A stretch of 64,000 nt of DNA from Clostridia bacterium (GTDB taxonomy: Bacteria; Bacillota; Clostridia; UBA1381; UMGS1253): contig JAZRUW010000012.1 in the NCBI GenBank assembly GCA_045652745.1, positions 2,089 through 66,088 of the forward strand. The letters are read 5' to 3'. The translations under genes were made by a program, and so were the position numbers. This document shows positions 1,984 through 48,081 of this stretch, piece by piece. The notes beneath the pieces were generated by a model. That model was given only the letters and a program-made list of their open reading frames with translations, made no database searches and was not told where the DNA came from. How positions within the stretch are numbered: the first letter of the stretch is position 1; every line of letters begins with the position of its first letter.

Positions 1984-2640
1984 ATGATGCATATTCAGAA
2001 TTTGCATACGCATACGGTGTATTGCGTCGGCGCAGATATGCCGGTGCAGATGGTGGAAGCTGCGTTGGAAAAGGGATTTGCATCCATAGGCTTTTCGGGG
2101 CATTCCTTTATGCGTTATTCGGATTACCTCGGCAGCGATGATAAAACTGAAGACTATAAAAAAGAGATACTGCGCCTTAAAAAAGCATATGCGGACAGAA
2201 TAAAGATTTATCTCGGCCTTGAGGTGGATATGTAACCTAAACCTGATATGCTGGGATAGGATTACTTAATCGGTTTGGTGCATTATCTGTATCGGTTTTG
2301 ACCGTGGACAAAAAGCGGTGGAGAACATTATAAACAGATTTTTCGACGGAAACGGTATGGAATATGTCAAAATTTATTACAAGACATTGGCAGAATTACC
2401 GCAATATGGCGACTTTGATATTATCGGCCATTTTGATTGGATTACAAAACATAGTGACAACGTATAATTCTTTGATGAAACATCAAAAGAATATTTAGAT
2501 GCGGCATTTGAAGCGGCTTATGCTTTAGCGGGAAAGATACCATAAATGGTTTTAAAGAAGTTGCTTTATAAATGGTGATAAAAGAGATGTTTTGGTCTGC
2601 ATATCGACAACAAAGATTGGCATTCAAATTGTGCAAGATG
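1984..2640 (+). pseudogene. PHP-family histidinol-phosphatase (HisJ/HisK-like), disrupted by stop codons and frameshifts
   Basis: The N-terminal 83 aa (MMHIQNLHTHTVYC..GFSGHSF..YLGLEVDM*) end at a premature stop at 2233-2235. Homologous continuation is visible in other frames: DYLIGLVHYL at about 2260, and FFDGNGMEYVKIYYKTLAELPQYGDFDIIGHFDWITKHSDN then FDETSKEYLDAAFEAAYALAGK at about 2339-2550. Confidence 0.65.
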
Positions 2641-2761
2641 TATGACGTATTGTACGCCCAACTGTTTAAATGCGGCTGTTGTGAAAAGATAGTCGATACT
2701 ATTTTAACGAAATTTATATAAAGGGTGAAAAAGTTTACTTCTTTTTTATTGTGTTTGGGGT

Positions 2762-3120
2762 TTGGGTATGATATACTTGAAATGTTGGATGAACCGGTTT
2801 GTTCGGTCAGGTAAAATACGGAAATTCGGCGCGTCTAACTGGACATCGGAAAGAATACATAAGGCCAATACATATGCCGCGGAAAACGGACTTATGGGTT
2901 TTTCGGCCGGTCAGCTCCGTTTTAACCCTGCTTACTGTTTGGGGGAAAGAAGCGGTCTTGTGGGCATGGATTCGGTTGAGTTTTATAAAAAAATAATATA
3001 CCGGTGGTTGCCTATTCTTCGCAGGCGAAGGGCTTTTTCTCAAAAATGGCTGAGGCGGGGGAAGGTTCCTTTTCCGGAAAAGTGAAAAAACTGTATTTGC
3101 GGAAATTTTTAAATTTGATA
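2762..3120 (+). pseudogene. aldo/keto reductase remnant (5'-truncated and frameshifted)
   Basis: SGKIRKFGASNWTSERIHKANTYAAENGLMGFSAGQLRFNP is the typical central/C-terminal AKR segment. It continues in a second frame (AYSSQAKGFFSKMAEAGEGSFSGKVKKLY). The N-terminal third or more of an AKR is missing. Confidence 0.6.
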
Positions 3121-9078: not shown

Positions 9079-9109
9079 ATCCCAACCGTGTGTGCGGTTG
9101 GGATTTTTT
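9079..9109. terminator. bidirectional terminator between convergent genes
   Basis: atcccaaccg-tgtgtg-cggttgggat, flanked by A7 and T6. Confidence 0.75.
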
Positions 9110-10082
9110 ATAGGATTTGTTTGAGTAATGCATATATACCGTCGGCCTGCGGTTTCGGCAGAGCGGCGGTCAGTGCCGCGCGTGTTGTATCTGCATCCAG
9201 CGGACAGTCGGTCAGTGCCGAGGTTACGCGTTCGGAAAGGGTTTCATCCATTGCATCGGTGAAAAGCTGTGTGTTTCGGATGATGCCTGTTTGTACGTCG
9301 AGTTGCAGCTCGGCGTGTCCCCAGTCAAAGTGCGCTTCGGCGGTTGCGGTGAAGGGGAGAGTTTTGCCGAGCAAGTATTCACGGCTTTGGTAGGCTTCGG
9401 TCAGAGTATCTATCTCTTTTGCATCACGAATTTTGATTTGTGTAGCTTTTAAACCGTAGATTTCTTCGAAAGCGGTAAGTACATATGCTTGCATTTTTTC
9501 ACACGTTAAATCCGGAGCAAGAGATTTTAAGTTGGTGACACGTGCGCGCACGGAAGTTACTCCTTTTGCGGCAAGTTTTGCTTTGGCAGGCGTGAGAAAC
9601 CGCCCCATCTTTTCCAAATCCGCATCAATGAGGAGTGTACCATGGTGATAGGCTTTGCTGCCGCTGTTATAAAAAGCGTTGCCGGAAAATTTCTTGCCGT
9701 CGGCAAGCAAATCGTTTCGCCCCGAAAATTCGGTTTCGATGCCGGCGAGGCGACAGGCAGTTTGCAGAATTTGCATATCGCGGTTTATGTCTGCGTTTTC
9801 TTTGGTATACACAAAAGTGAAATTCAAATTGCCGAGGTCGTGGAACACCGCGCCGCCACCGGATAAACGGCGCGCGAGCTTGCCGCCGGCTTCTTCCAGT
9901 TCACGGATGCGGCATTCCGCCCATGCGTTCTGGTTTTTACCGATGACGACCGTGTTTTCATTTTGCCAAAGATACAAAATACATGTATCTGCATCTACGC
10001 GGTCTAAAAGATGTTTTTCAACCGCCAGATTGTAATGCGGGTTGTGTGTATGTGCGATATAGTATTGCAGTTTTTGAATCAT
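9108..10082 (-). CDS. lplA: lipoate-protein ligase A
   Basis: MIQKLQYYIAHTHNPHYNLAVEKHLL..ILYLWQNENTVVIGKNQNAWAEC..RRLSGGGAVFHDLGNLNFTF is canonical LplA. Confidence 0.85.
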   Translation of the reverse strand: MIQKLQYYIAHTHNPHYNLAVEKHLLDRVDADTCILYLWQNENTVVIGKNQNAWAECRIRELEEAGGKLARRLSGGGAVFHDLGNLNFTFVYTKENADINRDMQILQTACRLAGIETEFSGRNDLLADGKKFSGNAFYNSGSKAYHHGTLLIDADLEKMGRFLTPAKAKLAAKGVTSVRARVTNLKSLAPDLTCEKMQAYVLTAFEEIYGLKATQIKIRDAKEIDTLTEAYQSREYLLGKTLPFTATAEAHFDWGHAELQLDVQTGIIRNTQLFTDAMDETLSERVTSALTDCPLDADTTRAALTAALPKPQADGIYALLKQIL

Positions 10083-10152
10083 ATTTTCACCCTCATGCGT
10101 GCTTTTTTTCTATTATTTTAAGGTAAATTTGCAAAAGAGTCAATAGGATTTA

Positions 10153-10181
10153 TTGACAAATGTGATATAAAATGTTAAAAT
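10153..10181 (+). promoter_or_regulatory. sigma-A promoter of the DeoR-family gene
   Basis: TTGACA (10153-10158), 17-nt spacer, TGtTAAAAT (10173-10181). The spacer contains the TGTGATATAA motif. Confidence 0.55.
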
Positions 10182-10217
10182 TGTTATAAACATGAGCTTT
10201 TGGCGGAGGTTTATAAC

Positions 10218-10967
10218 ATGAACTTAATTAGACAAGACCGCATAAAAAAATATGTAGAACAAAAAAGTGTAGCAACCATCAAGGAGCTGCAAGCGCTGTT
10301 TCCCGAGGTTTCTTTGATGACCATTCACAGGGATTTAAATGAACTTGAGCGGCAAGGGGTCATTTCCAAGCATCGCGGTATGGTGAAATTTGCACGCTAT
10401 CAGGACGATGTGGATTTTCATGTGCGCATGGGGGAAAATACGCCGGGCAAGCTTTCGATGGTGGAGAAGGCGATAAGGCTTCTGCAGCCGCACAGCTCCG
10501 TATTTTTAGATGCCGGTACATCGAATTTGTTTTTGGCAAAGAATTTGCCGGACATCAGTTTGAATGTGGTAACCACCGCGCCGGGGATTGCCATGGAGCT
10601 TTGCCGTTTGCGCAATCCGACAGTGACGGTTTGTTGCGGCACGATGAACAAAAGAAACATGTCGGTATCGGGACTCAATACGATTGAGATGCTTAAAAAA
10701 ATTAACATTGATCTTGCATTTATCGGCGTTTCAGGCTATTCGGCAAGTGCGGGTTTTACCTGCGGTACAGAGGCGGATATGTGGATTAAGAAAACCATCA
10801 TTGAAAAAGCGCGCGTGCGCGTAATGATGTGCGGCGCGGAAAAGCTCGAACGCCTGATGCCGTATACTTTTGCAACGTTGGAAGATGCGGACTATTTGAT
10901 TACGGACGAGCCTATGAGTGAAGAATTTGTGCAGATTGCAAAAAAAGCCGGGGTAATTGTATTGTAG
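10218..10967 (+). CDS. DeoR-family transcriptional regulator
   Basis: MNLIRQDRIKKYVEQKSVATIKELQALFPEVSLMTIHRDLNELERQGVISKHRG (DeoR HTH) plus a sugar-phosphate-binding-type C-domain. GGAGG lies 8 nt upstream of the ATG at 10218. Confidence 0.85.
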   Translation: MNLIRQDRIKKYVEQKSVATIKELQALFPEVSLMTIHRDLNELERQGVISKHRGMVKFARYQDDVDFHVRMGENTPGKLSMVEKAIRLLQPHSSVFLDAGTSNLFLAKNLPDISLNVVTTAPGIAMELCRLRNPTVTVCCGTMNKRNMSVSGLNTIEMLKKINIDLAFIGVSGYSASAGFTCGTEADMWIKKTIIEKARVRVMMCGAEKLERLMPYTFATLEDADYLITDEPMSEEFVQIAKKAGVIVL

Positions 10968-10984
10968 TTTCTATGTAAAAAGAA

Positions 10985-11012
10985 TTGACAAAATGTTAAT
11001 ATGTGATATAAT
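10985..11012 (+). promoter_or_regulatory. sigma-A promoter of the 2-oxoacid dehydrogenase operon
   Basis: TTGACA (10985-10990), 16-nt spacer, TGaTATAAT (11004-11012). It is embedded in repeated TGTTAWA / TGTGATATAA motifs. Confidence 0.6.
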
Positions 11013-11068
11013 GTTAAATGCAAGTGTTATAAAATGTTAAAAACAACATAAGTAAGGGGTGTTTTACT

Positions 11069-12316
11069 ATGGCAAATGCAGTAATTATGCCCAAAGCCGG
11101 TATTACGGTAGAAAGCTGTATCATCGGTACTTGGGAAAAGAAAGTCGGCGATTCGGTTAAAGTTGGCGATATTCTGTTTACTTATGAAACAGACAAAGCA
11201 AGCTTTGAATGTGAATCGACGGAAGAAGGTACATTGTTAGAAATCTTTTATCAGGAAGGCGACGAAGTGCCTTGTCTGGTAAATGTGTGCGCGGTAGGTA
11301 ATCCGGGTGAGGATGTATCCGCTCTGCGTCCGGGCGATGCTCCGGCTGAGCAAGCAGCACCGGCAGCGGAAGCTGCGCCGGCTGCTGAAGCGGCTGCACC
11401 TGTAGCTGCACCGGCTGTATCTACGGCTGTGGAAGGTGAGAAGAGCGCAATTTCGCCGAGAGCGAAAAAGCTTGCAGAACGTGCAGGTGTGGATGCGGCT
11501 GCGGCAACACCGACCGGCCCGAACGGCAGAATTATTGAACGTGACGTAAGAGAATTGATGAACAATCCGGTTTCTGCACCGGTTGCGGCTGCAGCGGCTG
11601 CGGCACCGGCAGTGGCAGAAGCGGAATACGAAGATGTGAAATTCAGCGGTATTCGCCGTGCCATCAGCAAGTCGATGCATACTTCGCTTTCGACCATGGC
11701 ACAGCTTACACACAATACATCCTTTGATGCTTCCGCAATTCTGGCTTACAGAAAGCTTTTGAAGGCATCCGAGGGTGAAACAGCAGGTATCACACTTGGT
11801 GATATCGTGTTGTACGCAGTATCGAGAACGCTTCTTAACCATCCGGATTTGAATGCACATATGCTCGATGACAACAACATTCGTCTGTTTAAGCATGTAC
11901 ATCTGGGCGTTGCGGTAGACACACCGCGCGGCTTGATGGTGCCGACAATTTTCAATGCAGACCAAAAGAGCCTTTTGGAAATCTCCAAGGAAGTTAAGGA
12001 GCTTGCAGCACAGTGCCGTGAAGGCAATATCAACCCGGATAAGCTGTCGGGCGGTACATTTACCGTATCGAACCTCGGCAATATGGGCGTAGAGTCCTTT
12101 ACACCGGTAATCAATCCGCCGCAGACGGGTATCTTGGGCGTATGCGGTACGATTGAGCGTGTACGCAAGGGTAAGGATGGCAATATCGAGATTTATCCGG
12201 CAATGGGTCTGAGTCTGACCTACGACCACCGCGCAGTAGACGGTACACCGGCGGCGCGTTTCCAGAAAGAACTCGGTCAGAATCTTGAAAACTTCACCGC
12301 GCTTTTGGCGAAATAG
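11069..12316 (+). CDS. dihydrolipoamide acyltransferase (E2 component of a 2-oxoacid dehydrogenase complex)
   Basis: Single lipoyl domain (..FTYETDKASFECES..), Ala/Pro-rich linkers, a peripheral-subunit-binding domain (ISPRAKKLAERAGVD) and a catalytic domain ending ..LSLTYDHRAVDGTPAARF. Confidence 0.9.
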   Translation: MANAVIMPKAGITVESCIIGTWEKKVGDSVKVGDILFTYETDKASFECESTEEGTLLEIFYQEGDEVPCLVNVCAVGNPGEDVSALRPGDAPAEQAAPAAEAAPAAEAAAPVAAPAVSTAVEGEKSAISPRAKKLAERAGVDAAAATPTGPNGRIIERDVRELMNNPVSAPVAAAAAAAPAVAEAEYEDVKFSGIRRAISKSMHTSLSTMAQLTHNTSFDASAILAYRKLLKASEGETAGITLGDIVLYAVSRTLLNHPDLNAHMLDDNNIRLFKHVHLGVAVDTPRGLMVPTIFNADQKSLLEISKEVKELAAQCREGNINPDKLSGGTFTVSNLGNMGVESFTPVINPPQTGILGVCGTIERVRKGKDGNIEIYPAMGLSLTYDHRAVDGTPAARFQKELGQNLENFTALLAK

Positions 12317-12327
12317 GAGGACGTGTT

Positions 12328-13695
12328 ATGGAACTGTATGATTTGATTGTCATCGGCGGCGGCCCGGGCGGTTATCTGTGCGCAGAGCGCGCAGCGCAGG
12401 CCGGTATGCATGTGGCATTGTTTGAAAAGAAGGCGCTGGGCGGCACCTGTTTAAATGAAGGTTGTATCCCGACCAAAACGCTTTTAAACTCTTCTAAAAT
12501 GTATCGCCACGCCAAGGAAAGCGAAGCTTTCGGCGTAACTGTGGGCGAGGTGAAATTTGACCACGCAAAGGTGATTGAAAGAAAAGACGGCGTTGTAAAA
12601 ACGCTGGTTGCCGGTGTCGGTGCAACGATGAAGGCAAATAAAGTAGAAGTGATTTCCGCTTCTGCAACCGTGCAGGGCCGCGGTGAAAACGGTTTTGCCG
12701 TTGCGGCAGACGGAAAAGTATACGAAGGCAAACGTCTCGTGATTGCAACCGGTTCTGAAACCGTAGTTCCGCCGGTGCCGGGTTTAAAAGAGGGCATTGA
12801 GCGCGGCTTTGTTGTAACCAACCGCGAGGTGCTGGATAAAAAGGATCTGCCGGAGAAACTGGTCGTTATCGGCGGCGGTGTTATCGGTCTGGAAATGGCA
12901 TACTACTTTGCAAGTGTAGGCGTTTCGGTAACCGTGATTGAAATGATGCCGAAAATCGCAGGCGCAACCGATGCAGACATCTGCAAGGTGCTCCAAGCCG
13001 GTTTTGAAAAGCGCGGTATGGAATTCAAACTTTCCTGCAAGGTGCTGGAAGTGAAAGAAAACAGCGTAATTTATGAAGAAAACGGCGAAAAGAAGGAGCT
13101 TGCTTGTGATGCGGTGCTTCTGTCTGCCGGCAGAAAGCCGTCTACGGCAAACATCGGTATTGAAACACTGCAACTGCAGATGGACAGAGCGGCAATTGTA
13201 ACTGACCGTCATCTGTGCACTAACGTTTCGGGCGTGTATGCCATCGGTGACTGCAACGGCAAGTTGATGCTGGCGCATACAGCGTACAGAGAAGCCGAGG
13301 TTGCCGTAAATCACATGCTCGGCAAAGCGGATGAAATGCGCTACGATGTGATTCCGTCCGTTATTTACACCGATCCGGAGGTTGCAAGCGTAGGCCTTTC
13401 CAAAGAGGAAGCACAAAAGCGCGGCATCGCGGTAAAGGAAGTTAAACTGCCGATGTCCTATGCAGGTCGTTACCTTGCGGAAACCGAGGGCGGCAAGGGC
13501 TTTATCAAGCTCGTAGTGGATACGGACAAAAACCGTTTGGTAGGTTGCCATATGGTTGGCTCGTATGCATCGGAAATTATTATGACAGCAACGATGATGG
13601 TAGATACGGAACTTTCCATTGACAGACTCAAGAAACTCGTATTCCCGCATCCGACGGTAGCGGAAATGATTCGTGAAGCTATATTTCATATTTAA
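12328..13695 (+). CDS. lpd: dihydrolipoyl dehydrogenase (E3)
   Basis: YDLIVIGGGPGGYLCAERAAQAG..GGTCLNEGCIPTKTLL shows the FAD-binding and redox-active disulfide motifs. Confidence 0.9.
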   Translation: MELYDLIVIGGGPGGYLCAERAAQAGMHVALFEKKALGGTCLNEGCIPTKTLLNSSKMYRHAKESEAFGVTVGEVKFDHAKVIERKDGVVKTLVAGVGATMKANKVEVISASATVQGRGENGFAVAADGKVYEGKRLVIATGSETVVPPVPGLKEGIERGFVVTNREVLDKKDLPEKLVVIGGGVIGLEMAYYFASVGVSVTVIEMMPKIAGATDADICKVLQAGFEKRGMEFKLSCKVLEVKENSVIYEENGEKKELACDAVLLSAGRKPSTANIGIETLQLQMDRAAIVTDRHLCTNVSGVYAIGDCNGKLMLAHTAYREAEVAVNHMLGKADEMRYDVIPSVIYTDPEVASVGLSKEEAQKRGIAVKEVKLPMSYAGRYLAETEGGKGFIKLVVDTDKNRLVGCHMVGSYASEIIMTATMMVDTELSIDRLKKLVFPHPTVAEMIREAIFHI

Positions 13696-13714
13696 TTGAA
13701 AAGGAGAGATACAT

Positions 13715-16180
13715 ATGCCTAAGAATTTATTTGTAGATCCGGCCGAGGTACGTGCGGCGGGCAAAATCACATTTGAAGACATTCCGGTAAACGTGTATAA
13801 CAAAACCGTTGCGGACGAGCGCGGTAAGTTCAGCGATGACGACCTTATGCGTATTTACCGTGATATCGCAATTTTGCGTGAGTTTGAGTCGATGCTCAAT
13901 CAGATTAAGACGCAGGGTCTTTATAACGGTATTGAAACGACCTATCCGGGTCCGGCCCATCTGTCCATTGGTCAGGAAGCTGCAGCCGTAGGTCAGGCCT
14001 ACCTGCTCGACCAGAACGACTTCTCGTTCGGTTCGCACCGCAGCCACTCCGAGATTCTTGCAAAAGCGCTTTCTTGTATCAACAAATTAAGCGAGCAGGA
14101 ACTCATGGATGTTATGGAAGGCTTTTTGGGCGGTAGTGCACTGCGCGCAACGGAAAAGCTCGGTCCGGTAAGCGATGTAAAGGAATTGGCAATCCGCTTT
14201 ATCCTCTACGGTACACTTTCCGAGATTTTTGCGCGTGAGACCGGTTTCCATAAGGGTATGGGCGGTTCGATGCATGCATTCTTCCTGCCGTTTGGTATTT
14301 ATCCGAACAACGCTATCGTTGGTGGTTCGGCTTCGATTTCCACCGGTGCTGCACTGTTTAAGAAGATTAACGAAAAGAACGGTATTGTTGTATGTAATAT
14401 CGGTGACGGTTCCATGGCGCGCGGTCCGGTTTGGGAAGCAATGAACTTTGCATCCATGGACCAGTTTAAGACGCTTTGGGAAAGCCACAACGGCGGTGTG
14501 CCGATTCTGTTTAACGTATTTAACAACTCCTACGGTATGGGCGACCAGACCCGCGGTGAAACCATGGGTTACGATATGCTCGCACGTATCGGTTCCGGCG
14601 TAAGCCCGACCCAGTTCTATGCAGAGCGTGTAGACGGCTTCAATCCGCTTGCGGTTATTGATGCAATGGAAAGAAAGCTCAAGATTTTGCGTGCAGGTGA
14701 AGGTCCGGTTATGCTCGATACACTTACATACCGCTTCTCCGGTCACTCGACTTCCGACCAAAATGCATACCGCACCAAGGAGGAACTCGATGCATGGCGC
14801 GAGGTGGATCCGCTGCTCACATACCGCAAGAATTTGGTGGATGCAGGCGTTGCAGCTGATTCTAAGTTTGAAGAAATTCTCGCTGATGTTTCTGAGCGTA
14901 TGACTATGATTTGTAAGGCAGCTTCGGATACTTCCATCAGCCCGTATGTAGATTTCAAGAAAGACCCGGCAGTGGTAGAACGTTTGATGTTCTCCAACGA
15001 AAAGGTAGATAAGTTTGACGAGCGTGAGCCGGAAGTAAATATGCCGCTTGCTGAAGTACCGGCATATAAGAAGATTAAGGAAAAGAGCCGCACACCGATT
15101 GTGAACGGCAAGCCGGTTTCCAAGATGAAGCTCTACAATCTTCGTGATGCCCTCTCTGAGGTTATCTACGACAGATTCTATGAAGATCCGACCTTGATTG
15201 CTTACGGTGAAGACTGCCGTGACTGGGGCGGCGCGTTTGCAGTATACCGCGGTATGATGGATGCTTTCCCGCACTGCAGACTCTTTAATGCTCCGATTGC
15301 TGAAGCTGCAATTGTAGGTACAGCAGTAGGTTACGCGCTTTCGGGCGGTCGTGCGATTGTAGAATTGATGTATGCAGACTTTATCGGCTGCGCAGGCGAT
15401 GAAATCTTTAACCAGATGTCCAAGTGGCAGGCAATGTCTGCGGGCATTTTGAAGATGCCGGTTGTACTCCGTGTATCCGTTGGTTCCAAGTACGGTGCAC
15501 AGCACAGCCAGGACTGGACAGCACTTTGTGCACATATCCCGGGCCTCAAGGTATGCTTCCCGGCAACGCCGTGGGAAGCAAAGGGTCTTATGGAAACTGC
15601 ACTTCGCGGCACTGACCCGGTTGTATTCTTCGAAAGCCAGAGAATTTACGACGTGGGCGAGCAGTTCCACGAAGGCGGCGTTCCGGAAGAACGTTACGAA
15701 ATCGAATTCGGTGATGTAAACAAGGTTCGTGACGGTAAGGATGTTACGATTATCACAGTTGGTGCGGTACTTTACCGCGCAGTAGAAGCGGCAAAGACAC
15801 TTTCTGAAAAGTACGGTATGGAAGCAGATGTAATTAACCTGCACTCCCTCGTACCGCTCGATTACACCAAGATTATCGAATCGGTTAAAAAGACCGGTCG
15901 CGTGGTATTGGTATCTGATGCTTGCGCACGTGGTTCGTTCATGAACGATGTTGCAAAGAACATCACCGAGCTTTGCTTTGACGATTTGGATGCACCGCCG
16001 GCAGTTGTTGGTGCGCGCAACTGGATCACCCCTCCGTTTGAATTCGACGAATTCTTCTTCCCGCAGGCAAGCTGGATTCTGGATGCAATCCATGAAAAGC
16101 TTGTTCCGCTGGCAGGCTATGTGCCGGAAAACGGCTGCACGGAGACAGAACTTATCCGTCGTGCTAAGGAAGGCGTATAA
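13715..16180 (+). CDS. fused E1 alpha/beta subunit of a 2-oxoacid (pyruvate/acetoin/branched-chain) dehydrogenase
   Basis: One 821-aa ORF. The N-half is the TPP-binding E1-alpha (..GSHRSHSEILAKAL..GGSMHAF..NIGDGS..). The C-half is the transketolase-like E1-beta (..LIAYGEDCRDWGGAFAVYRGM..FNAPIAEAAIVGTAVGYAL..). Confidence 0.85.
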   Translation: MPKNLFVDPAEVRAAGKITFEDIPVNVYNKTVADERGKFSDDDLMRIYRDIAILREFESMLNQIKTQGLYNGIETTYPGPAHLSIGQEAAAVGQAYLLDQNDFSFGSHRSHSEILAKALSCINKLSEQELMDVMEGFLGGSALRATEKLGPVSDVKELAIRFILYGTLSEIFARETGFHKGMGGSMHAFFLPFGIYPNNAIVGGSASISTGAALFKKINEKNGIVVCNIGDGSMARGPVWEAMNFASMDQFKTLWESHNGGVPILFNVFNNSYGMGDQTRGETMGYDMLARIGSGVSPTQFYAERVDGFNPLAVIDAMERKLKILRAGEGPVMLDTLTYRFSGHSTSDQNAYRTKEELDAWREVDPLLTYRKNLVDAGVAADSKFEEILADVSERMTMICKAASDTSISPYVDFKKDPAVVERLMFSNEKVDKFDEREPEVNMPLAEVPAYKKIKEKSRTPIVNGKPVSKMKLYNLRDALSEVIYDRFYEDPTLIAYGEDCRDWGGAFAVYRGMMDAFPHCRLFNAPIAEAAIVGTAVGYALSGGRAIVELMYADFIGCAGDEIFNQMSKWQAMSAGILKMPVVLRVSVGSKYGAQHSQDWTALCAHIPGLKVCFPATPWEAKGLMETALRGTDPVVFFESQRIYDVGEQFHEGGVPEERYEIEFGDVNKVRDGKDVTIITVGAVLYRAVEAAKTLSEKYGMEADVINLHSLVPLDYTKIIESVKKTGRVVLVSDACARGSFMNDVAKNITELCFDDLDAPPAVVGARNWITPPFEFDEFFFPQASWILDAIHEKLVPLAGYVPENGCTETELIRRAKEGV

Positions 16181-29585: not shown

Positions 29586-30950
29586 TTAGGTGCCGTAACG
29601 AAGAAAATCTTCGTAATCCGACATCTCGGATTCTTCCGTGTTGACGCTTGCGAGCAAATCAATCTCCGGCGTGTAGGGGATGTGTACGGAAGCGGTAAAG
29701 CCGCGAAGCGCATCCGGCGCGTGCGTCAGCTCGTGCGGATGCAGCGCCGTATCGTTTGGATTTTTTTCGTCAAAACACAGCGCCGGCAGGGTGCGGATTA
29801 AGTTTTTGCAGTTTCTGAAAATGCGCAGGCGCGGGCGCATGCAACCGTCCGTATCCACCACGGGACGCAGCCATTCCTTGACGGAGTACCAACCGCGCAC
29901 GCGGTTGTTGTCTGCCTTGTAAAAGGAAAGTCCGTGCGCGGCAAAAATGTCAATCGCACTTTGTCCCGTTTCCTGACGCCGGTTAAACAGGTCCGGCGGT
30001 GCGTAAGCGGCGCGTAAGGGTTCACCGCAGTTGTATTCAGCAATTTTCTGGGCCGCTTCGGATAAAATCAATCCGTTTTGATACAGTTCGCGGTAGACAA
30101 AGGCGTGTCCGTAACGGTCCACGGCAATCCACAGGCAGGCGAGCATGTCCAGACCGTAGTCGATGCTGATGTAGCGCGATACATCGGACGGCAATTCAAA
30201 CGGCTCGACGACGTGCGCTTCGCGGTCAAACTCTGCAAAATACTGCCCTTCGAACACATCCCAATCGCCGTCGAGCATCGCTTTTCTTCGATTGGGCGGT
30301 AAGTTTTCGAGTGTGCGCACATAGTCGGGCGAGTTTTGCAGCAGAAACGGATTGTCGTACACGCGCGAGGGGATAAAAGTATAATCCGAAGCGCGTTCGC
30401 TGTTTTTATAGTTTTTGTCTATGAACAGACGTTTTACCCAGCCGTGCCCGATGCCGCCGGGATTGCACGTAAAGTACATCCGCGGGGCAAAGGGCTTTTT
30501 TAACAGGCCGCTGGTACGGTTAGATTCGGTGAGCGCCGTAAAAACAAATTCGGAAAACTGCGTTGCCTCCTCCATAAAGATGGCATCGTAGCTTTGTCCC
30601 TGATATTGCAGTACGTCGCGGTCGGCGGCGCAGTAGCCGAGTACGATGCGGCTCCCGTTTTCAAAAACAAAACAGCGCGTGGCCGATTTGTACTCGGCGA
30701 TATCCTTTAAAAGTGCCATTAACGGATAGATGTGGTTTTCACGCAGGGATTGCAAATCGCGGCGCAAAAGCAGAATTTGAATGCCGTCGTACTCTAAGGC
30801 AAGTAAAACGGCCTTGATTCTTGCCGCCCAGCTTTTGCCGCCGCCGCGTGCGCCGCCGTAGGCAATGTAGCGCGTGTCTGCGGTGAAAAAAGCCTCCTGC
30901 TTTGGATACGGCTTTGTGAGCGCTAAGATGCGCTCGTTTACGTTGCCCAT
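29586..30950 (-). CDS. phage terminase large subunit
   Basis: Walker A YGGARGGGKSWA near the N-terminus, IFMEEATQF (Walker B-like), and a C-terminal nuclease-type region. At 454 aa it is intact. Confidence 0.85.
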   Translation of the reverse strand: MGNVNERILALTKPYPKQEAFFTADTRYIAYGGARGGGKSWAARIKAVLLALEYDGIQILLLRRDLQSLRENHIYPLMALLKDIAEYKSATRCFVFENGSRIVLGYCAADRDVLQYQGQSYDAIFMEEATQFSEFVFTALTESNRTSGLLKKPFAPRMYFTCNPGGIGHGWVKRLFIDKNYKNSERASDYTFIPSRVYDNPFLLQNSPDYVRTLENLPPNRRKAMLDGDWDVFEGQYFAEFDREAHVVEPFELPSDVSRYISIDYGLDMLACLWIAVDRYGHAFVYRELYQNGLILSEAAQKIAEYNCGEPLRAAYAPPDLFNRRQETGQSAIDIFAAHGLSFYKADNNRVRGWYSVKEWLRPVVDTDGCMRPRLRIFRNCKNLIRTLPALCFDEKNPNDTALHPHELTHAPDALRGFTASVHIPYTPEIDLLASVNTEESEMSDYEDFLRYGT

Positions 30951-43804: not shown

Positions 43805-43833
43805 TTGACAAGACAGTCAGAGTATGCTATATT
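43805..43833 (+). promoter_or_regulatory. sigma-A promoter of the T-box operon
   Basis: TTGACA (43805-43810), 17-nt spacer, TGcTATATT (43825-43833). Confidence 0.65.
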
Positions 43834-43839
43834 TATCTC

Positions 43840-44122
43840 ATTATGAAAACGCTGTGATGCGGAATAGTACGCGAAAAGTTTTCGCCTGGAGAGAGATGCC
43901 GGACGGTGCGAGGCATTGGGAAGGTTTTGCAGAACTCACCGCGGAGCGGCTGCCGTGAAAAATAAAGTAGAGGCAGACGGGAACTCCCGTTACAGAGTCA
44001 AGATGTGTTAGCATCTAAAGGGCATCCCGAAGGATGAAGAAGAGTGGTACCGCGGAAGCAAAAAACAGTTAATGTTATGCTTTCGTCTCTTTCAAAACTA
44101 AAAGAGACGAAAGCATTTTTTT
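43840..44122 (+). promoter_or_regulatory. T-box riboswitch leader, specifier codon CUC (Leu)
   Basis: Stem I has a K-turn-like GCTGTGATGCGG / CCGCGGAGCGGC base, an AGTA element, a GGAGAGAG bulge and a GGTGCGAG distal loop. The specifier loop gcagaaCTCa places CTC at 43935-43937. The conserved T-box sequence AAGAGTGGTACCGCG is at 44039-44055. A 16-bp terminator (44077-44116) plus a T-run follows. Confidence 0.85.
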
Positions 44123-44158
44123 GTATCTTTCGTTTCAAAAAGGAAAGGGAGAAAAATT

Positions 44159-45547
44159 ATGAGAACAATCCATGTAACAGACATTACGCTCAAGAAATTG
44201 GCGGCAGAGCGCGCAGTTTCGCTGTTGTTTCGTGAAAAGACCGCGATTGCGGCCTGTGCAGATTCTATCGGTGCAGATGCGATAGAGCTTGCGGCGATTT
44301 CGAGCCTCAGAGAGGATACGATTATTTATAAGACTATTTCCCAAAACGTACAAAACAGCATCTTGGCGATTCCGGTCGGCTTTTCGGCGCAGGAGGTTTG
44401 CGATGCGTGGGAATGTGTAAAGGAAGCCGCAAAGCCGAGATTGCAAATTGAGGTACCGACTTCGACGGTGCAGATGGAGTATATGTATCATGTCAAAGCC
44501 GATAAGATGGCAGAAAAAATCGGTGCGCTGACCAAACAGGCAAAGGCACTTTGCGCGGATGTGGAGTTTGTTGCGTTGGATGCAACACGTGCGGATGAAG
44601 AATTTTTGATTGCCGCATGTAAGAGCGCAGAGGAAAACGGTGCAAATCTTGTGACGGTTTGTGATGATACAGGGATGGCACTTCCGGAGGAAATCGCGGC
44701 ATTGGTCGGCAAGGTAAAGGCGGCCGTATCCGTGCCGGTGTATGTATCCGTATGCGACGGTATAGGTATGGCAAACGCGGCGGCTGTGGCGGCAATTTCT
44801 GCCGGTGCAGACGGCGTAAAGTGCGCGATGGCAGGTGCAAAAGTACTGCAGATGGGCACTTTTAGCGCGGCGATGACAGCGCGCGGCGATGCCCTCGGCG
44901 TAAACTGCGGTTTGGTGAACACAAAAATTCATGCAAGTATTGAGGACTTATTGTCTAAAATCAATCACGAGGCGTATGAAAGTGCGGACAGCGTGAGCGA
45001 AAAGAAAAAGATTTTGCTTGACGAGGATTCCACAATTTCCGATGTGGCCCATGCTGCAAATGTGCTTGGCTACGATTTGTCCGATGAGGACAACGGCAAG
45101 GTGCATAAGGCGCTTATGCAGGTTTGTGAAAAGAAAGGCTCCGTCGGTGCTAAGGAGTTTGAGGCACTCATTGCAAGCAGTGCGATGCAGGCGCCGTCTA
45201 CCTATCATTTTGAAAGTTATTCGACGAGCTGCGGCAATCTGACGAGTGCAATGTCGCAGGTAACGCTCAGATGCGGCGACGAGCTTTTGTGCGGTGTGAG
45301 CACGGGCGACGGCCCGATTGACTCGGTATTCCGCGCCATCGAGCAGAGCATCGGATATCACTATGAACTCGACGATTTCCAGATTCAGTCCGTGACGGAC
45401 GGCAAAGAAGCACTCGGCTCAGCGTTGGTAAAACTGCGTGTGGGCGGCAAACTCTATTCCGGTAACGGTAGTTCGACTGACATTGTAGCGGCGAGCATCC
45501 GTGCGTATATCAATGCGCTCAATAAGATTGTATTTGAGGAGGCGTAA
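44159..45547 (+). CDS. 2-isopropylmalate-synthase-like protein with degenerate catalytic motifs and an intact LeuA allosteric (dimerisation) domain
   Basis: The HMGL-like barrel aligns by eye (DVEFVALDATRADEEFL..NLVTVCDDTGMALPEE), but DTTLRDGEQ is DITLKKLAA, HxHNDxG is VSVCDGIG and GIGERAGN is AGAKVLQM. The C-terminal GDGPIDSVFRAIE..SVTDGKEALGSALVKL..GNGSSTDIVAASIRAYINALNKI is a canonical LeuA_dimer domain. Confidence 0.75.
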   Translation: MRTIHVTDITLKKLAAERAVSLLFREKTAIAACADSIGADAIELAAISSLREDTIIYKTISQNVQNSILAIPVGFSAQEVCDAWECVKEAAKPRLQIEVPTSTVQMEYMYHVKADKMAEKIGALTKQAKALCADVEFVALDATRADEEFLIAACKSAEENGANLVTVCDDTGMALPEEIAALVGKVKAAVSVPVYVSVCDGIGMANAAAVAAISAGADGVKCAMAGAKVLQMGTFSAAMTARGDALGVNCGLVNTKIHASIEDLLSKINHEAYESADSVSEKKKILLDEDSTISDVAHAANVLGYDLSDEDNGKVHKALMQVCEKKGSVGAKEFEALIASSAMQAPSTYHFESYSTSCGNLTSAMSQVTLRCGDELLCGVSTGDGPIDSVFRAIEQSIGYHYELDDFQIQSVTDGKEALGSALVKLRVGGKLYSGNGSSTDIVAASIRAYINALNKIVFEEA

Positions 45548-45550
45548 GCG

Positions 45551-48010
45551 ATGAAACTGACCTTTTCAACGAAAAACGTGCATCGTCCTACCTTTCTGGA
45601 TACCTGCCGTTATGCATATGATTACGGCTATGCAGGTTTTGAAATTTATGACGCTGTTGCGGAACGTAAGCAGCACCACGACAGTATTTTAAGAACAGAT
45701 CGCGTGGCGGATGCAAAACGCAAGTTGTTTAATCGCGGTTTGGCAGTATCTGCGCTGCGCTACCCGTACGAAGTGGAAAGCGAACTGGCCTGTGCACAGA
45801 CACTTGAAAAATATGTTGATATGGCGAGAAATGCGGGCATTGAACGTGTCATCGTACGTGTTTGGGAAGAACCGGACAAGGCGCTGCTTTATGAGAAGCT
45901 GATGCCGGCAATTCAGCGTGCGGAAAAAGCGGATATACAGATTTTGTTTGAAACGGCCGGCTACCTGGCGCAGACGGAGCATGTGATTGATTTAATCAAT
46001 CTATTTTCGTCGGCAGCAATCGGGGTTTCGTGGAACACGAGAGAAACCTATTTCCGTGCCGGTGAGAGTGCCGATAAGACCATTAAAACCTTAGGTGCGT
46101 ATATCAAATATGTGCGACTCGGCGATATGGCGGACGGCAAAAAAGTGCTCATCGGTGAGGGAGAATTGCCGGTGACCAATGTAATTAACGCGCTTTCTTC
46201 GCTCAATTTTGACGGCTATATTTGTGTGGCATGGAATGAAGAAATTCAGGATGCAGATATTGTTTTGACGCATTTTATAAATTATATCGCCAGCCTTTCG
46301 CGCCGCCGCAAGGAAAAAGACGGCGCGTACTATAACCGCGATAAGTCGGGTACATTTGTCTGGAAAAAGTATGATGTCATTGATGCAACATTTTCCGATG
46401 TGCTCGATACGATGGTAGAAAAGTATCCGGACCAGTATGCCTTTAAGTATACGACCTTGGATTATACCCGTACTTATGCGCAATTCCGCCGCGATGTGGA
46501 TGAATGTGCGGCGGCGCTGATTTCGCTGGGTGTAAAAGCGGGCGACCATGTTGCCGTGTGGGCAACCAATGTGCCGGCGTGGTTTATTACCTTCTGGGCA
46601 ACCACGAAAATCGGTGCGGTACTCGTTACGGTAAACACGGCTTATAAAATTCACGAAATTGAATATCTTTTAAAGCAGTCGGATACCCATACGCTGGTGA
46701 TGATTGAAGATTGTAAGGACATCAACTATAAAGAAATTATCGAAGAACTTTGTCCGGAATTAAAGGGATTGAAACCGGGCACACCGCTCTATTCGAAAAA
46801 CCTGCCGTTTTTGCGCAATGTCGTTACGGTAGGCTTTGAGATGGACGGATGTCTTACCTGGGAGAAGATGCTTTCGCGCAGCAGCATGGTGCCGCAGGAG
46901 GAAGTGCGCAGACGCGCATCGCTTGTAAAGCCGGACGATGTGTGCAACATGCAGTACACTTCGGGTACAACCGGTTTTCCGAAAGGTGTTATGCTGACGC
47001 ACAGAAACATTGTAAACAACGGTAAAACCATCGGCGACCGCATGGATTTGTCCACGGCGGACCGCATGATGATTCAGGTGCCGATGTTCCATTGTTTCGG
47101 CATGGTTTTGTCGATGACATCTATGATGACGCACGGCGGCACGCTCTGTCCGATGCCGTACTTTTCGCCGAAATCGTCGCTGGCATGTGTAAATGATGAG
47201 CATATTACCTGCTTTAACGGCGTGCCGACGATGTTTATTGCGATGTTTAACCATGCAGATTTCGCGAAGACCGATTTTTCGTATATGCGTACGGGCATTA
47301 TGGCCGGTGCAAACTGTCCGGCGGATTTGATGCGCCGCGCGGCAGAAGAAATGAATATGCGTGAGATTATTTCCGTGTACGGGCAGACCGAGGCTTCGCC
47401 GGGCTGTACGATGGGTGAGGTCAATGAAGACCTTGACCACCGTGTGGAAACGGTAGGCTCGGCTTTTCCGGGTGTGGAGTGTAAGATTATCGATCCGGAA
47501 ACCGGAGAGGAATTGCCGGACGGCGAGAGCGGCGAGTTTGTAGCGCGCGGCTTTAACATCATGAAGGGGTACTACAAGATGCCGGAGGCAACCGCGCAGA
47601 CGATTGATGCGGACGGCTGGCTCCATTCGGGCGACATTTGCTGCCGTACACCGGATGGCTATTACAAGGTAACGGGCCGACTCAAGGATATGATTATTCG
47701 CGGCGGCGAAAATCTCTATCCGCGTGAAATCGAAGAATTTTATCTTACACATCCGAAGGTGCGCGATGTGCAGGTGGTTGGTGTGCCGGATGAGCGTTAC
47801 GGCGAAGAATGCTGTGCGTGGATTATTTTGCACAAGGGCGAAGAAGCGGACGAAAACGAAATGCGCGAATTTGGTAATGCTTCCATTGCGCGCCATAAAG
47901 TACCGCGCTACTTTGTGTTTGTCAAGGAATTTCCGATGAACGCCGCAGGCAAAATTTTGAAATATAAAATGCGTGACGAATCCGTGGAAATACTCGGATT
48001 GAAAAAATGA
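45551..48010 (+). CDS. fusion protein: xylose-isomerase-like TIM-barrel domain plus AMP-forming acyl-CoA synthetase/ligase
   Basis: Single uninterrupted 819-aa ORF. Residues 1 to about 255 are AP-endonuclease-2/sugar-phosphate-isomerase-like (GYAGFEIYD, ILFETAGY, YIKYVRLGD, NFDGYICVAW). The rest is an adenylate-forming enzyme (MQYTSGTTGFPKGVMLTHRNIV, ..GWLHSGD.., ..RLKDMIIRGGENLYPREIE.., C-terminal ..AAGKILKYKMRD). Confidence 0.8.
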   Translation: MKLTFSTKNVHRPTFLDTCRYAYDYGYAGFEIYDAVAERKQHHDSILRTDRVADAKRKLFNRGLAVSALRYPYEVESELACAQTLEKYVDMARNAGIERVIVRVWEEPDKALLYEKLMPAIQRAEKADIQILFETAGYLAQTEHVIDLINLFSSAAIGVSWNTRETYFRAGESADKTIKTLGAYIKYVRLGDMADGKKVLIGEGELPVTNVINALSSLNFDGYICVAWNEEIQDADIVLTHFINYIASLSRRRKEKDGAYYNRDKSGTFVWKKYDVIDATFSDVLDTMVEKYPDQYAFKYTTLDYTRTYAQFRRDVDECAAALISLGVKAGDHVAVWATNVPAWFITFWATTKIGAVLVTVNTAYKIHEIEYLLKQSDTHTLVMIEDCKDINYKEIIEELCPELKGLKPGTPLYSKNLPFLRNVVTVGFEMDGCLTWEKMLSRSSMVPQEEVRRRASLVKPDDVCNMQYTSGTTGFPKGVMLTHRNIVNNGKTIGDRMDLSTADRMMIQVPMFHCFGMVLSMTSMMTHGGTLCPMPYFSPKSSLACVNDEHITCFNGVPTMFIAMFNHADFAKTDFSYMRTGIMAGANCPADLMRRAAEEMNMREIISVYGQTEASPGCTMGEVNEDLDHRVETVGSAFPGVECKIIDPETGEELPDGESGEFVARGFNIMKGYYKMPEATAQTIDADGWLHSGDICCRTPDGYYKVTGRLKDMIIRGGENLYPREIEEFYLTHPKVRDVQVVGVPDERYGEECCAWIILHKGEEADENEMREFGNASIARHKVPRYFVFVKEFPMNAAGKILKYKMRDESVEILGLKK

Positions 48011-48013
48011 TTC

Positions 48014-48049
48014 AAAAAGACAGATTTTTCTCAAAAATCTGTCTTTTTT
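48014..48049 (+). terminator. rho-independent terminator of the T-box operon
   Basis: aaaaagacagattttt-ctc-aaaaatctgtcttttt. Confidence 0.75.
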
Positions 48050-48052
48050 GTG

Positions 48053-48081
48053 TTGACTTTACAAACAGCCTGTAATATAAT
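48053..48081 (+). promoter_or_regulatory. sigma-A promoter of the 1506-aa surface-protein gene
   Basis: TTGACT (48053-48058), 17-nt spacer, TATAAT (48076-48081). TGTAATATA is repeated at 48071 and 48082. Confidence 0.65.

Follow-up and report, generated by a model that had tools for sequence, protein, structure and literature searches.

A leucine T-box operon of gut Clostridia encoding a LeuA-derived pseudoenzyme and a TIM-barrel acyl-CoA ligase, with a possible role in isovalerate activation

We analyzed a 64,000-nt stretch of a Clostridia bacterium genome (GenBank assembly GCA_045652745.1, contig JAZRUW010000012.1, positions 2,089–66,088 of the forward strand), which we refer to as the window, and describe here one transcription unit within it. 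The unit is a self-contained two-gene operon that follows a class-typical leucine T-box leader. Its first open reading frame (ORF), ORF1, is a predicted descendant of the leucine-pathway enzyme LeuA that would be catalytically dead as a synthase, and its second, ORF2, fuses a TIM barrel to an intact acyl-CoA ligase. The two genes constitute a conserved obligate module. On the strength of gene context and regulatory logic, we consider the chances slightly better than even that the pair serves a leucine-starvation-induced activation of isovalerate for reductive carboxylation to leucine. The features of the unit, in window coordinates, are as follows.

43805–48048, plus strand: transcription unit, comprising promoter, T-box leader, ORF1, ORF2 and terminator
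43805–43833, plus strand: sigma-70-type promoter, TTGACA, 17-nt spacer and extended −10 element TGcTATATT (11/12 consensus matches, TG present)
43845–44093, plus strand: T-box leader RNA (Rfam RF00230), with Stem I carrying the specifier loop, Stem III, and the antiterminator with the T-box sequence
43935–43937, plus strand: specifier codon CUC (Leu), in the context GAA-CUC-A (43932–43938), from the RF00230 alignment
44043–44054, plus strand: conserved T-box sequence AGUGGUACCGCG, from the RF00230 alignment
44077–44123, plus strand: leader intrinsic terminator, a 16-bp stem (44077–44116) with an 8-nt loop, then a T-run
44159–45547, plus strand: ORF1, 462 aa, LeuA-derived, with DRE-TIM barrel, subdomain II and LeuA_dimer domain and without subdomain I (Pfam, alignments)
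45551–48010, plus strand: ORF2, 819 aa, with AP_endonuc_2, AMP-binding and AMP-binding_C domains (Pfam)
45551–46300, plus strand: N-terminal domain of ORF2 (about residues 1–250), a xylose-isomerase-like TIM barrel with degenerate metal ligands
46376–48010, plus strand: C-terminal part of ORF2 (residues 276–819), an ANL-family adenylate-forming acyl-CoA ligase
48014–48054, plus strand: operon terminator, a palindromic 16-bp hairpin (48014–48048) followed by TTTTTTG

A first-pass annotation, made from the letters of the window without database searches, had proposed a T-box with a CUC specifier ahead of the two genes. A covariance search with RF00230 confirmed both, matching the full model (1–219) with a score of 123.6 bits, above the gathering score of 93 (E = 6.4e-27), and placing CUC in the specifier position. 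The specifier is followed by a purine (A after CUC), and the UGGU of AGUGGUACCGCG is complementary to the tRNA 3′ end ACCA and fits discriminator A73. The 5′ arm of the leader terminator contains the antiterminator 3′ strand UUCGUCUCUUUC, so that the two structures are mutually exclusive; readthrough past the terminator would be expected solely when tRNA-Leu(GAG) is uncharged. The same riboswitch class and the same terminator/antiterminator logic are found in the T-box-controlled ilv-leu operon of Bacillus subtilis and in the Leu T-boxes of leuS, leuA and yvbW. The leucine specifier of the ilv-leu T-box is likewise CUC (Marta et al. 1996, cited in PMC2494555), and the purpose there is the same, restoring leucine supply when tRNA-Leu is uncharged (Marta et al. 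1996 and Wels et al. 2008, via PMC2494555). Unlike known Leu T-boxes, the leader in the window precedes an apparently dead LeuA paralogue and a TIM-barrel acyl-CoA ligase, rather than a synthetase, a canonical biosynthetic enzyme or a transporter, and neither of these two cargo types is mentioned in that T-box survey (PMC2494555).

The remaining architecture proposed in the first pass was upheld, with each element at the coordinates given for it. The promoter, with 11 of 12 consensus positions, lies 12 nt 5′ of the T-box start, and the two ORFs are indeed tightly packed, with a 3-nt gap between them. A ribosome-binding site (RBS), GAGGAGG, falls within the final codons of ORF1, and this together with the short gap suggests that the two genes are translationally coupled. 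A terminator was also found where one had been called, although its description as strong was generous: the hairpin is long (16 bp) yet AT-rich, with only three G-C pairs. The following gene has its own promoter (48053–48081).

We scanned a genome collection holding one genome per species with ORF1 and found relatives in at least 376 species-level genomes, of which the best 80 loci were examined. All 80 come from uncultured gut Clostridia (Oscillospiraceae, Acutalibacteraceae, Ructibacterium and Candidatus Aphodoplasma), many of them from goat, sheep and deer. ORF2 follows ORF1 in every one of these loci with enough downstream sequence, and the pairing extends to four further loci (L081, L082, L084 and L085), three of which (L081, L082 and L085) have a TIM identity of just 46%–62%. 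When all neighboring ORFs were clustered, ORF1 and ORF2 were the sole universally conserved genes. The synteny check proposed in the first pass thus came out positive: the trio of T-box, ORF1 and ORF2 recurs in dozens of other genomes, and the arrangement is therefore not due to chance. In public annotation, the pair appears only as “hypothetical protein” and “AMP-binding protein.”

The domains of the pair evolve at different rates, as reflected in the median amino acid identity to the window proteins:

ORF2 ligase: 0.94
ORF1 regulatory domain: 0.85
ORF2 TIM barrel: 0.70
ORF1 TIM barrel: 0.67

Synonymous sites were saturated in all domains, with a proportion of synonymous differences (pS) of ∼0.78, and for ORF1 the proportion of nonsynonymous differences (pN) was ∼0.1–0.23 versus a pS of ∼0.8. 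Between species (window versus L001–L085), the ligase domain was 91%–97% identical at the amino acid level and the fused TIM domain 63%–86%; overall, the barrels are four to five times less constrained than the ligase. These substitution patterns indicate that both barrels are maintained proteins under purifying selection and that the ligase evolves remarkably slowly, apparently at an unusual rate for the acyl-CoA ligase class. The strong purifying selection rules out a pseudogene remnant. Horizontal transfer as the source of the 94% ligase identity was also ruled out, because synonymous sites are saturated and the TIM barrel of the same gene is only ∼70% identical.

Sequence comparison identified ORF1 as a LeuA descendant. 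Pfam assigned HMGL-like (PF00682) to residues 20–242 (E = 2.8e-25) and LeuA_dimer (PF08502) to residues 331–457 (E = 1.1e-28), and the best NCBIfam match was the LeuA model NF002086, at 235.4 bits and below its equivalog cut-off of 532. We aligned ORF1 to three LeuA crystal-structure sequences and to Escherichia coli LeuA (b0074, MG1655). ORF1 shares its overall fold and domain order with LeuA and the DRE-TIM metallolyases (E. coli b0074; Mycobacterium tuberculosis and Neisseria meningitidis structures). Unlike LeuA, it lacks the R-D pair, the catalytic Glu, the HxH motif, an intact GIGERAGN loop (a four-residue deletion relative to E. coli LeuA), and the subdomain I segment HSSGIHQDG (HxxGIHxDG motif), which is removed by a 30-residue deletion in all aligned members of the family. 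The LRDGEQ motif of E. coli LeuA reads LKKLAA in ORF1, and the individual active-site positions have changed as follows.

E. coli LeuA R13: K12 in ORF1; K, N or R elsewhere in the family
E. coli LeuA D14: K13 in ORF1; K, R, A or S elsewhere in the family
E. coli LeuA E141 (catalytic Glu): L140 in ORF1; invariant L across the family
E. coli LeuA H202 (metal ligand): S197 in ORF1; Q or K elsewhere in the family
E. coli LeuA H204 (metal ligand): C199 in ORF1; S or L elsewhere in the family

Within ORF1, conservation is lowest in the HxH region. In the M. tuberculosis isopropylmalate synthase, R80K and E218A each abolish activity (reviewed in PMC10464499). With the R-D pair, the catalytic Glu and HxH replaced and the subdomain I segment absent, ORF1 is predicted to be unable to act as a synthase. 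The absence of catalytic residues also rules out a functional citramalate synthase, homocitrate synthase or 3-hydroxy-3-methylglutaryl-CoA-lyase-type enzyme.

The regulatory domain has fared differently from the active site: no other part of ORF1 is as well conserved, and its identity to the E. coli LeuA domain is 31%. The alignment to E. coli LeuA is gapless internally from the NRENYE-equivalent to the LNxI motif near the C terminus, and E. coli G462 aligns with the family-invariant G420 of ORF1; G462D is the classic feedback-resistant allele of E. coli LeuA. An AlphaFold model of ORF1 (predicted local distance difference test [pLDDT] score of 73.7) had LeuA-family structures as its best Foldseek matches (E down to 5e-19), with a plant methylthioalkylmalate synthase, a LeuA relative, at the top and LeuA structures next, including leucine-bound M. 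tuberculosis LeuA. No solved structure onto which leucine-binding residues could be mapped was detectable by sequence for the regulatory domain. The ST.QMEY and DATRAD blocks of ORF1 hold invariant polar residues at the barrel end. The first-pass description of a LeuA-like protein that had lost its substrate and metal motifs and kept its allosteric domain was therefore borne out against all four LeuA references, and a proper alignment revealed no functional DRE-TIM active site.

ORF2 combines three Pfam domains, in line with the fusion described in the first pass: AMP-binding (PF00501; E = 2.1e-95), AMP-binding_C (PF13193; E = 9.8e-17) and AP_endonuc_2 (54.8 bits; cut-off 31.1). The ligase domain is intact by sequence. 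Its core motifs are all readable (YTSGTTGFPKG, YGQTE, SGD, the hinge GRLKDMIIRGGENLYP, and AAGK), and it aligns with the solved CoA ligases 8weu and 8wev. The nearest NCBIfam entry was the PRK12583 subfamily NF009233 (675.9 bits; cut-off 832), and the closest relatives of the ligase, whether standalone (∼53% identity) or fused, carry only generic database names.

The TIM barrel of ORF2 has been altered at its metal site. The structural model was confident in the barrel (residues 1–250; pLDDT ∼90) and poor over residues 461–725 (pLDDT below 50); in a structure search with the full model, ligase matches dominated and the TIM domain yielded nothing. By family profile, the closest solved relative of the barrel is MJ1311 (3wqo; E = 5.7e-8). 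Compared with MJ1311 and D-tagatose 3-epimerase, the barrel retains only the first metal ligand, E134; the Asp is replaced by N162 (Asp in some members), HH by RE, and His by R189, and the last ligand, a Glu, is replaced and followed by a four-residue deletion. Two distant fusions of a TIM barrel to a ligase provide a useful comparison:

L087, 270–2792: distant TIM-ligase fusion, 55% ligase identity
L088, 161–2638: distant TIM-ligase fusion, 46% ligase identity

Both keep the canonical ligands WD.HH, VHVKD and (L/Y)EW, and the ORF2 family reads W(N/D).RE and VR(L/I/F)GD where they read WD.HH and VHVKD, which argues that ligand loss in the ORF2 family is derived. Several polar residues at the barrel end of ORF2 are invariant (E134, W161, R164, E172, R189, D192 and H241). 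In L088, the genes after the fusion encode a 2-oxoacid_dh acyltransferase and an HTS homologue.

Upstream regulation was scored in the 77 loci with enough upstream sequence. A T-box was present in 58 of them, with UGGU in all 58 and a CUC specifier in 57, so that the specifier lies where the first-pass annotation had read it. The distant loci L081, L082 and L085 carry T-boxes as well, and the L081 and L082 alignments read CUC. Locus L051 reads CCC rather than CUC in an otherwise identical context (GAACCCACC); this could be a genuine specifier change or a variant introduced by sequencing or assembly.

The other 19 of the 77 loci have no T-box. In its place stand a conserved promoter, an RBS, a leader ORF of 32–36 codons, and an intrinsic terminator just before ORF1. 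No alternative riboswitch was found in the 12 loci scanned at the Rfam gathering threshold, and the leader region of L007 had no Rfam match in an E-value scan. Leader-peptide loci are listed here.

L007, 5740–5990; L008–L011; L013–L019; L021; L022; L025; L030; L046; L049; L057; L083, from 9783: promoter, leader ORF and terminator in place of the T-box

The leader ORF has the core I-L-L-(I/L)-(N/I)-A-I-I-I-L and the end NSA(I/V/F)CRV, contains more Ile than Leu codons, and varies in length only by multiples of three. Its run of Ile codons pairs with a downstream AAUAGCG segment, and the codons that precede the stop (GCGCUNUUUGUCG) could base-pair with the terminator's left arm and loop (12–13 of 13 pairs, of which 3–5 are G-U). 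We regard the element as a candidate leader-peptide attenuator, as its layout fits classical attenuation. The E. coli leuL and Staphylococcus aureus ilv-leu attenuators likewise consist of a short ORF with a run of amino acid codons between promoter and terminator, and the stop codon of the relatives' leader ORF directly follows the segment able to pair with the terminator. Among Firmicutes, a Leu-rich attenuator peptide is known from S. aureus ilv-leu (PMC5794164). The element differs from leuL-type attenuators in that it lies outside this window, has no Rfam match, and has only a candidate antiterminator. The possibility that the leader ORF is an unrelated membrane peptide gene was rejected, because it leaves no room for a separate ORF1 promoter and occupies the T-box position.

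The neighborhood of the pair points to a pathway. Genes for an IlvE-type branched-chain aminotransferase (BCAT) and a VorB-type 2-oxoacid:ferredoxin oxidoreductase (VOR) lie next to the pair in at least four different arrangements; the BCAT neighbor matched NF009897 (502 bits; cut-off 307) and the VorB neighbor NF005507 (546 bits; cut-off 399). The leader-peptide clade (L083) has, after the pair, BCAT, a ParA-like gene, a 4Fe-4S ferredoxin, VorB, the thiamine pyrophosphate and gamma subunits, a helix-turn-helix (HTH)/cupin protein, and an MbcS-like ligase. In the T-box loci L024 and L054, BCAT and VOR likewise come after the pair. In L037, L040 and L085 they precede it, with the T-box positioned between BCAT and ORF1, and in L031 they are divergent from it. 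A ligase, a ferredoxin-dependent oxidoreductase and a transaminase together make up the enzyme set required to convert a branched acid to a branched amino acid. The clusters carry AMP-forming ligases, and ptb-buk was absent from the genes listed for the three loci that had Pfam annotation; this combination fits the acid-to-amino-acid direction. The first-pass statement that the operon includes no canonical leucine enzyme is thus true of the window and does not carry over to relatives in which BCAT, the last enzyme of leucine synthesis, adjoins the pair.

A second ligase accompanies the module in some genomes.

L076, 10250–12553; L083, 18272–20555; L035, L041, L043, L044, L055, L065, L067, L069, L074, L080: MbcS-like synthetase

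This MbcS-like synthetase is found just downstream of the module in about 12 loci, either fused to an N-terminal HTH and cupin (767 aa) or following a separate HTH/cupin gene, and the ORF2 ligase is ∼25% identical to it. MbcS of S. aureus (NCBIfam equivalog NF047394) is, like ORF2, an ANL-family ligase, and it activates exogenous branched short-chain acids; unlike MbcS, ORF2 is nearest to the PRK12583 subgroup, begins with a TIM barrel, and is paired with a LeuA-like protein.

Two observations concern other elements near BCAT and VOR. A ParA/CbiA-like P-loop protein (219–229 aa; L083, 14939–15628; L085, 3055–3714), which has no NCBIfam match, is kept with BCAT and VOR, and the location of its gene immediately upstream of the ferredoxin-VOR genes suggests a possible accessory or maturation role. 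In L085, degenerate ∼35-nt direct repeats (CGAGCCTTGCC(C/T)AA(C/T)T(C/T)GTTTCTA...; 2620–3020) occur in five copies 67–108 nt apart, within the 480-nt gap upstream of the ParA-like, VOR and BCAT genes.

Two T-box loci carry a second leader ORF, between the TIM-ligase gene and the BCAT-VOR genes.

L024, 9854–10010: Ile-only leader ORF
L054, 4462–4610: Ile-only leader ORF

The leader peptide, MT(I/F)INIITVISIIIIGGII...KNNAVCHV (also read as TIINIITVISIIIIGG...KNNAVCHV), contains 10–13 Ile codons and no Leu codons. In these two loci, the pair keeps its Leu T-box, and BCAT-VOR have a separate promoter, leader ORF and terminator. The candidate antiterminator keeps the register seen in the first type of leader, with a single compensatory change from G-C to A-U. 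Where a single leader governs both the pair and BCAT-VOR, it carries both Leu and Ile codons. With a Leu T-box on the pair and an Ile-only leader on BCAT-VOR, the leucine signal appears to travel with ORF1-ORF2, and the shared downstream enzymes would answer to isoleucine in the two loci. Such a pattern, of which we have two examples, is as expected if the ligase were the leucine-specific (isovalerate) entry point.

On the reading we favor, the ORF2 ligase would activate isovalerate (3-methylbutyrate) to isovaleryl-CoA, spending ATP; a VorB-type oxidoreductase would reductively carboxylate isovaleryl-CoA to 4-methyl-2-oxopentanoate; and a branched-chain aminotransferase would turn the latter into leucine. 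In the window genome, the oxidoreductase and the aminotransferase would be encoded elsewhere. An anabolic VOR is also known from methanogens. The same chemistry, isovalerate carboxylation to leucine, was described in rumen bacteria (Allison et al. 1962, 1966, cited in PMC7356843), in the same habitat of ruminant and other animal guts; the rumen route is defined by labeling and physiology. In the literature, we found no gene-level description of the activation step of the isovalerate route or of a pseudoenzyme partner. The idea of a path from isovalerate through isovaleryl-CoA to reductive carboxylation, first raised in the first pass, gains support from the adjacency of BCAT and VOR in at least four arrangements and from the Ile/Leu leader control in 19 loci, the substrate being deduced from this context.

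Several observations weigh against this reading. The BCAT/VOR link is seen in a minority of loci (∼26/82), many of which share ancestry, leaving approximately four independent arrangements, and neither VOR nor BCAT was found in the flanks of most T-box loci or in the 64-kb window. ORF2 passes no NCBIfam equivalog cut-off, and homology assigns it no substrate. The MbcS-like second ligase present in some clusters could be the real isovalerate activator. The distant fusions L087 and L088 have no LeuA-like gene and no T-box upstream, and the existence of TIM-ligase fusions without these partners indicates that the fusion itself is not intrinsically leucine-linked. With regard to the leader peptides, minimum free energy folding with a stalled-ribosome mask kept the terminator and predicted no antiterminator, the candidate pairing (with its 3–5 G-U pairs) coming from complementarity only.

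A role in lipid synthesis is one alternative, in which the ligase would scavenge isovalerate or other branched acids as iso-fatty-acid primers, sparing leucine with no flow back to it. We consider this improbable. In its favor, MbcS-type branched acyl-CoA synthetases are an established family with that role (NF047394), with an MbcS-like ligase present in some of our clusters; BCAT and VOR run oxidatively would also give such acyl-CoAs; and switching on such a leucine-sparing supply through a T-box would also make sense. On the other hand, BCAT-VOR are apparently induced by Ile or Ile/Leu starvation through the leader peptides, which suits synthesis and not degradation, the neighbor-ORF clustering revealed no conserved fatty-acid-synthesis genes around the pair, and the kept LeuA allosteric domain better fits control of leucine supply.

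We give a similarly low probability to a ligase with a different or broad substrate range (e.g., 2-methylbutyrate, isobutyrate, phenylacetate, or other short and medium acids), in which case the pair would be a general acid-activation unit and its Leu T-box one use among others. The silence of homology on the substrate leaves room for this, as do the excess of Ile over Leu codons in the leader peptide of the 19 loci and the general ability of VorB-type enzymes to accept several branched 2-oxoacids. The constancy of CUC (57/58 T-box loci, across distant members) argues for leucine, and where both controls are present it is Leu that stays on ORF1-ORF2 and Ile on BCAT-VOR. Moreover, other acids could be served by the separate MbcS-like ligase, and the partner protein derives specifically from a leucine-pathway enzyme. 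Less probable still is that both TIM barrels are alive with non-canonical residues, making ORF1 and ORF2 a multistep enzyme that obtains a leucine precursor from a source other than isovalerate or processes acyl-CoA further: purifying selection on both barrels, invariant polar barrel-end residues in ORF1 and ORF2, and the extreme ligase conservation (94%), which hints at unusual constraints, are set against the replacement of all residues needed for DRE-TIM catalysis by variable ones (K/N/R, K/R/A/S, S/Q/K and C/S/L), the poor conservation of the HxH region, the four- to fivefold faster evolution of the barrels, and the specific loss in ORF2 of the metal ligands (D, HH, H and E) that the distant fusions retain.

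Returning to isovalerate activation, we infer more weakly, by analogy, that ORF1 may act as a leucine-sensing subunit bound to ORF2. ORF1 is probably in complex with ORF2, the degenerate TIM barrel of which may be a docking module, and ORF1 would there place the committed step under feedback control by free leucine. Such a pathway would have two gates, tRNA charging at transcription and leucine at the enzyme. The closest precedent is HisZ, a catalytically dead histidyl-tRNA-synthetase paralogue that serves as the histidine-sensing regulatory subunit of the short-form ATP phosphoribosyltransferase (HisG): there, too, a pseudoenzyme with an amino-acid-binding module controls the first committed enzyme and is encoded adjacent to it. 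The protein families of HisZ-HisG are entirely different from those of ORF1 and ORF2, and the analogy is functional only. The complete picture, with the LeuA pseudoenzyme as the leucine-sensing allosteric subunit of an isovalerate-CoA ligase, the TIM barrel as docking module, two layers of control, and the whole as a main leucine source in hundreds of gut Clostridia species, is one that we put forward tentatively, as a possibility that may well prove wrong in one or more parts.

Elsewhere in the window, a lipoate-protein ligase (minus strand), a DeoR regulator and a 2-oxoacid dehydrogenase complex occupy positions 9108–16180; the complex (11069–16180), with an E2 of 415 aa, an E3 of 455 aa and a fused E1 alpha-beta of 821 aa, is unrelated to the T-box unit. 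An isolated homologue of a phage terminase large subunit (29586–30950, minus strand), flanked by an S-layer-homology protein and addB/addA, is possibly left over from a prophage. The first 2 kb (1–2000) have a GC content of 0.34, versus 0.43–0.51 in the remainder of the window.

We found no description of the T-box/ORF1/ORF2 module in the literature or in database names, and hence no characterization of the pair with a function unrelated to leucine. The T-box is ordinary; its cargo and apparent logic are undescribed as far as our literature search showed. That anaerobes of the rumen and gut use branched short-chain fatty acids as precursors of leucine, isoleucine and valine has been recognized since the 1960s. 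The module supplies concrete gene candidates for the activation step of this long-known route and for its control, neither of which has been assigned to genes in the literature we searched, with leucine specificity and the inducing condition predicted. It may bear on branched-acid cross-feeding in gut communities and on ruminant nutrition, in which branched volatile fatty acids act as growth factors for organisms that degrade fibre. If the proposed role is true, the pair would be a case of enzyme-to-regulator repurposing, in which two TIM barrels without their metal sites have been kept by purifying selection beside a slow-evolving ligase.

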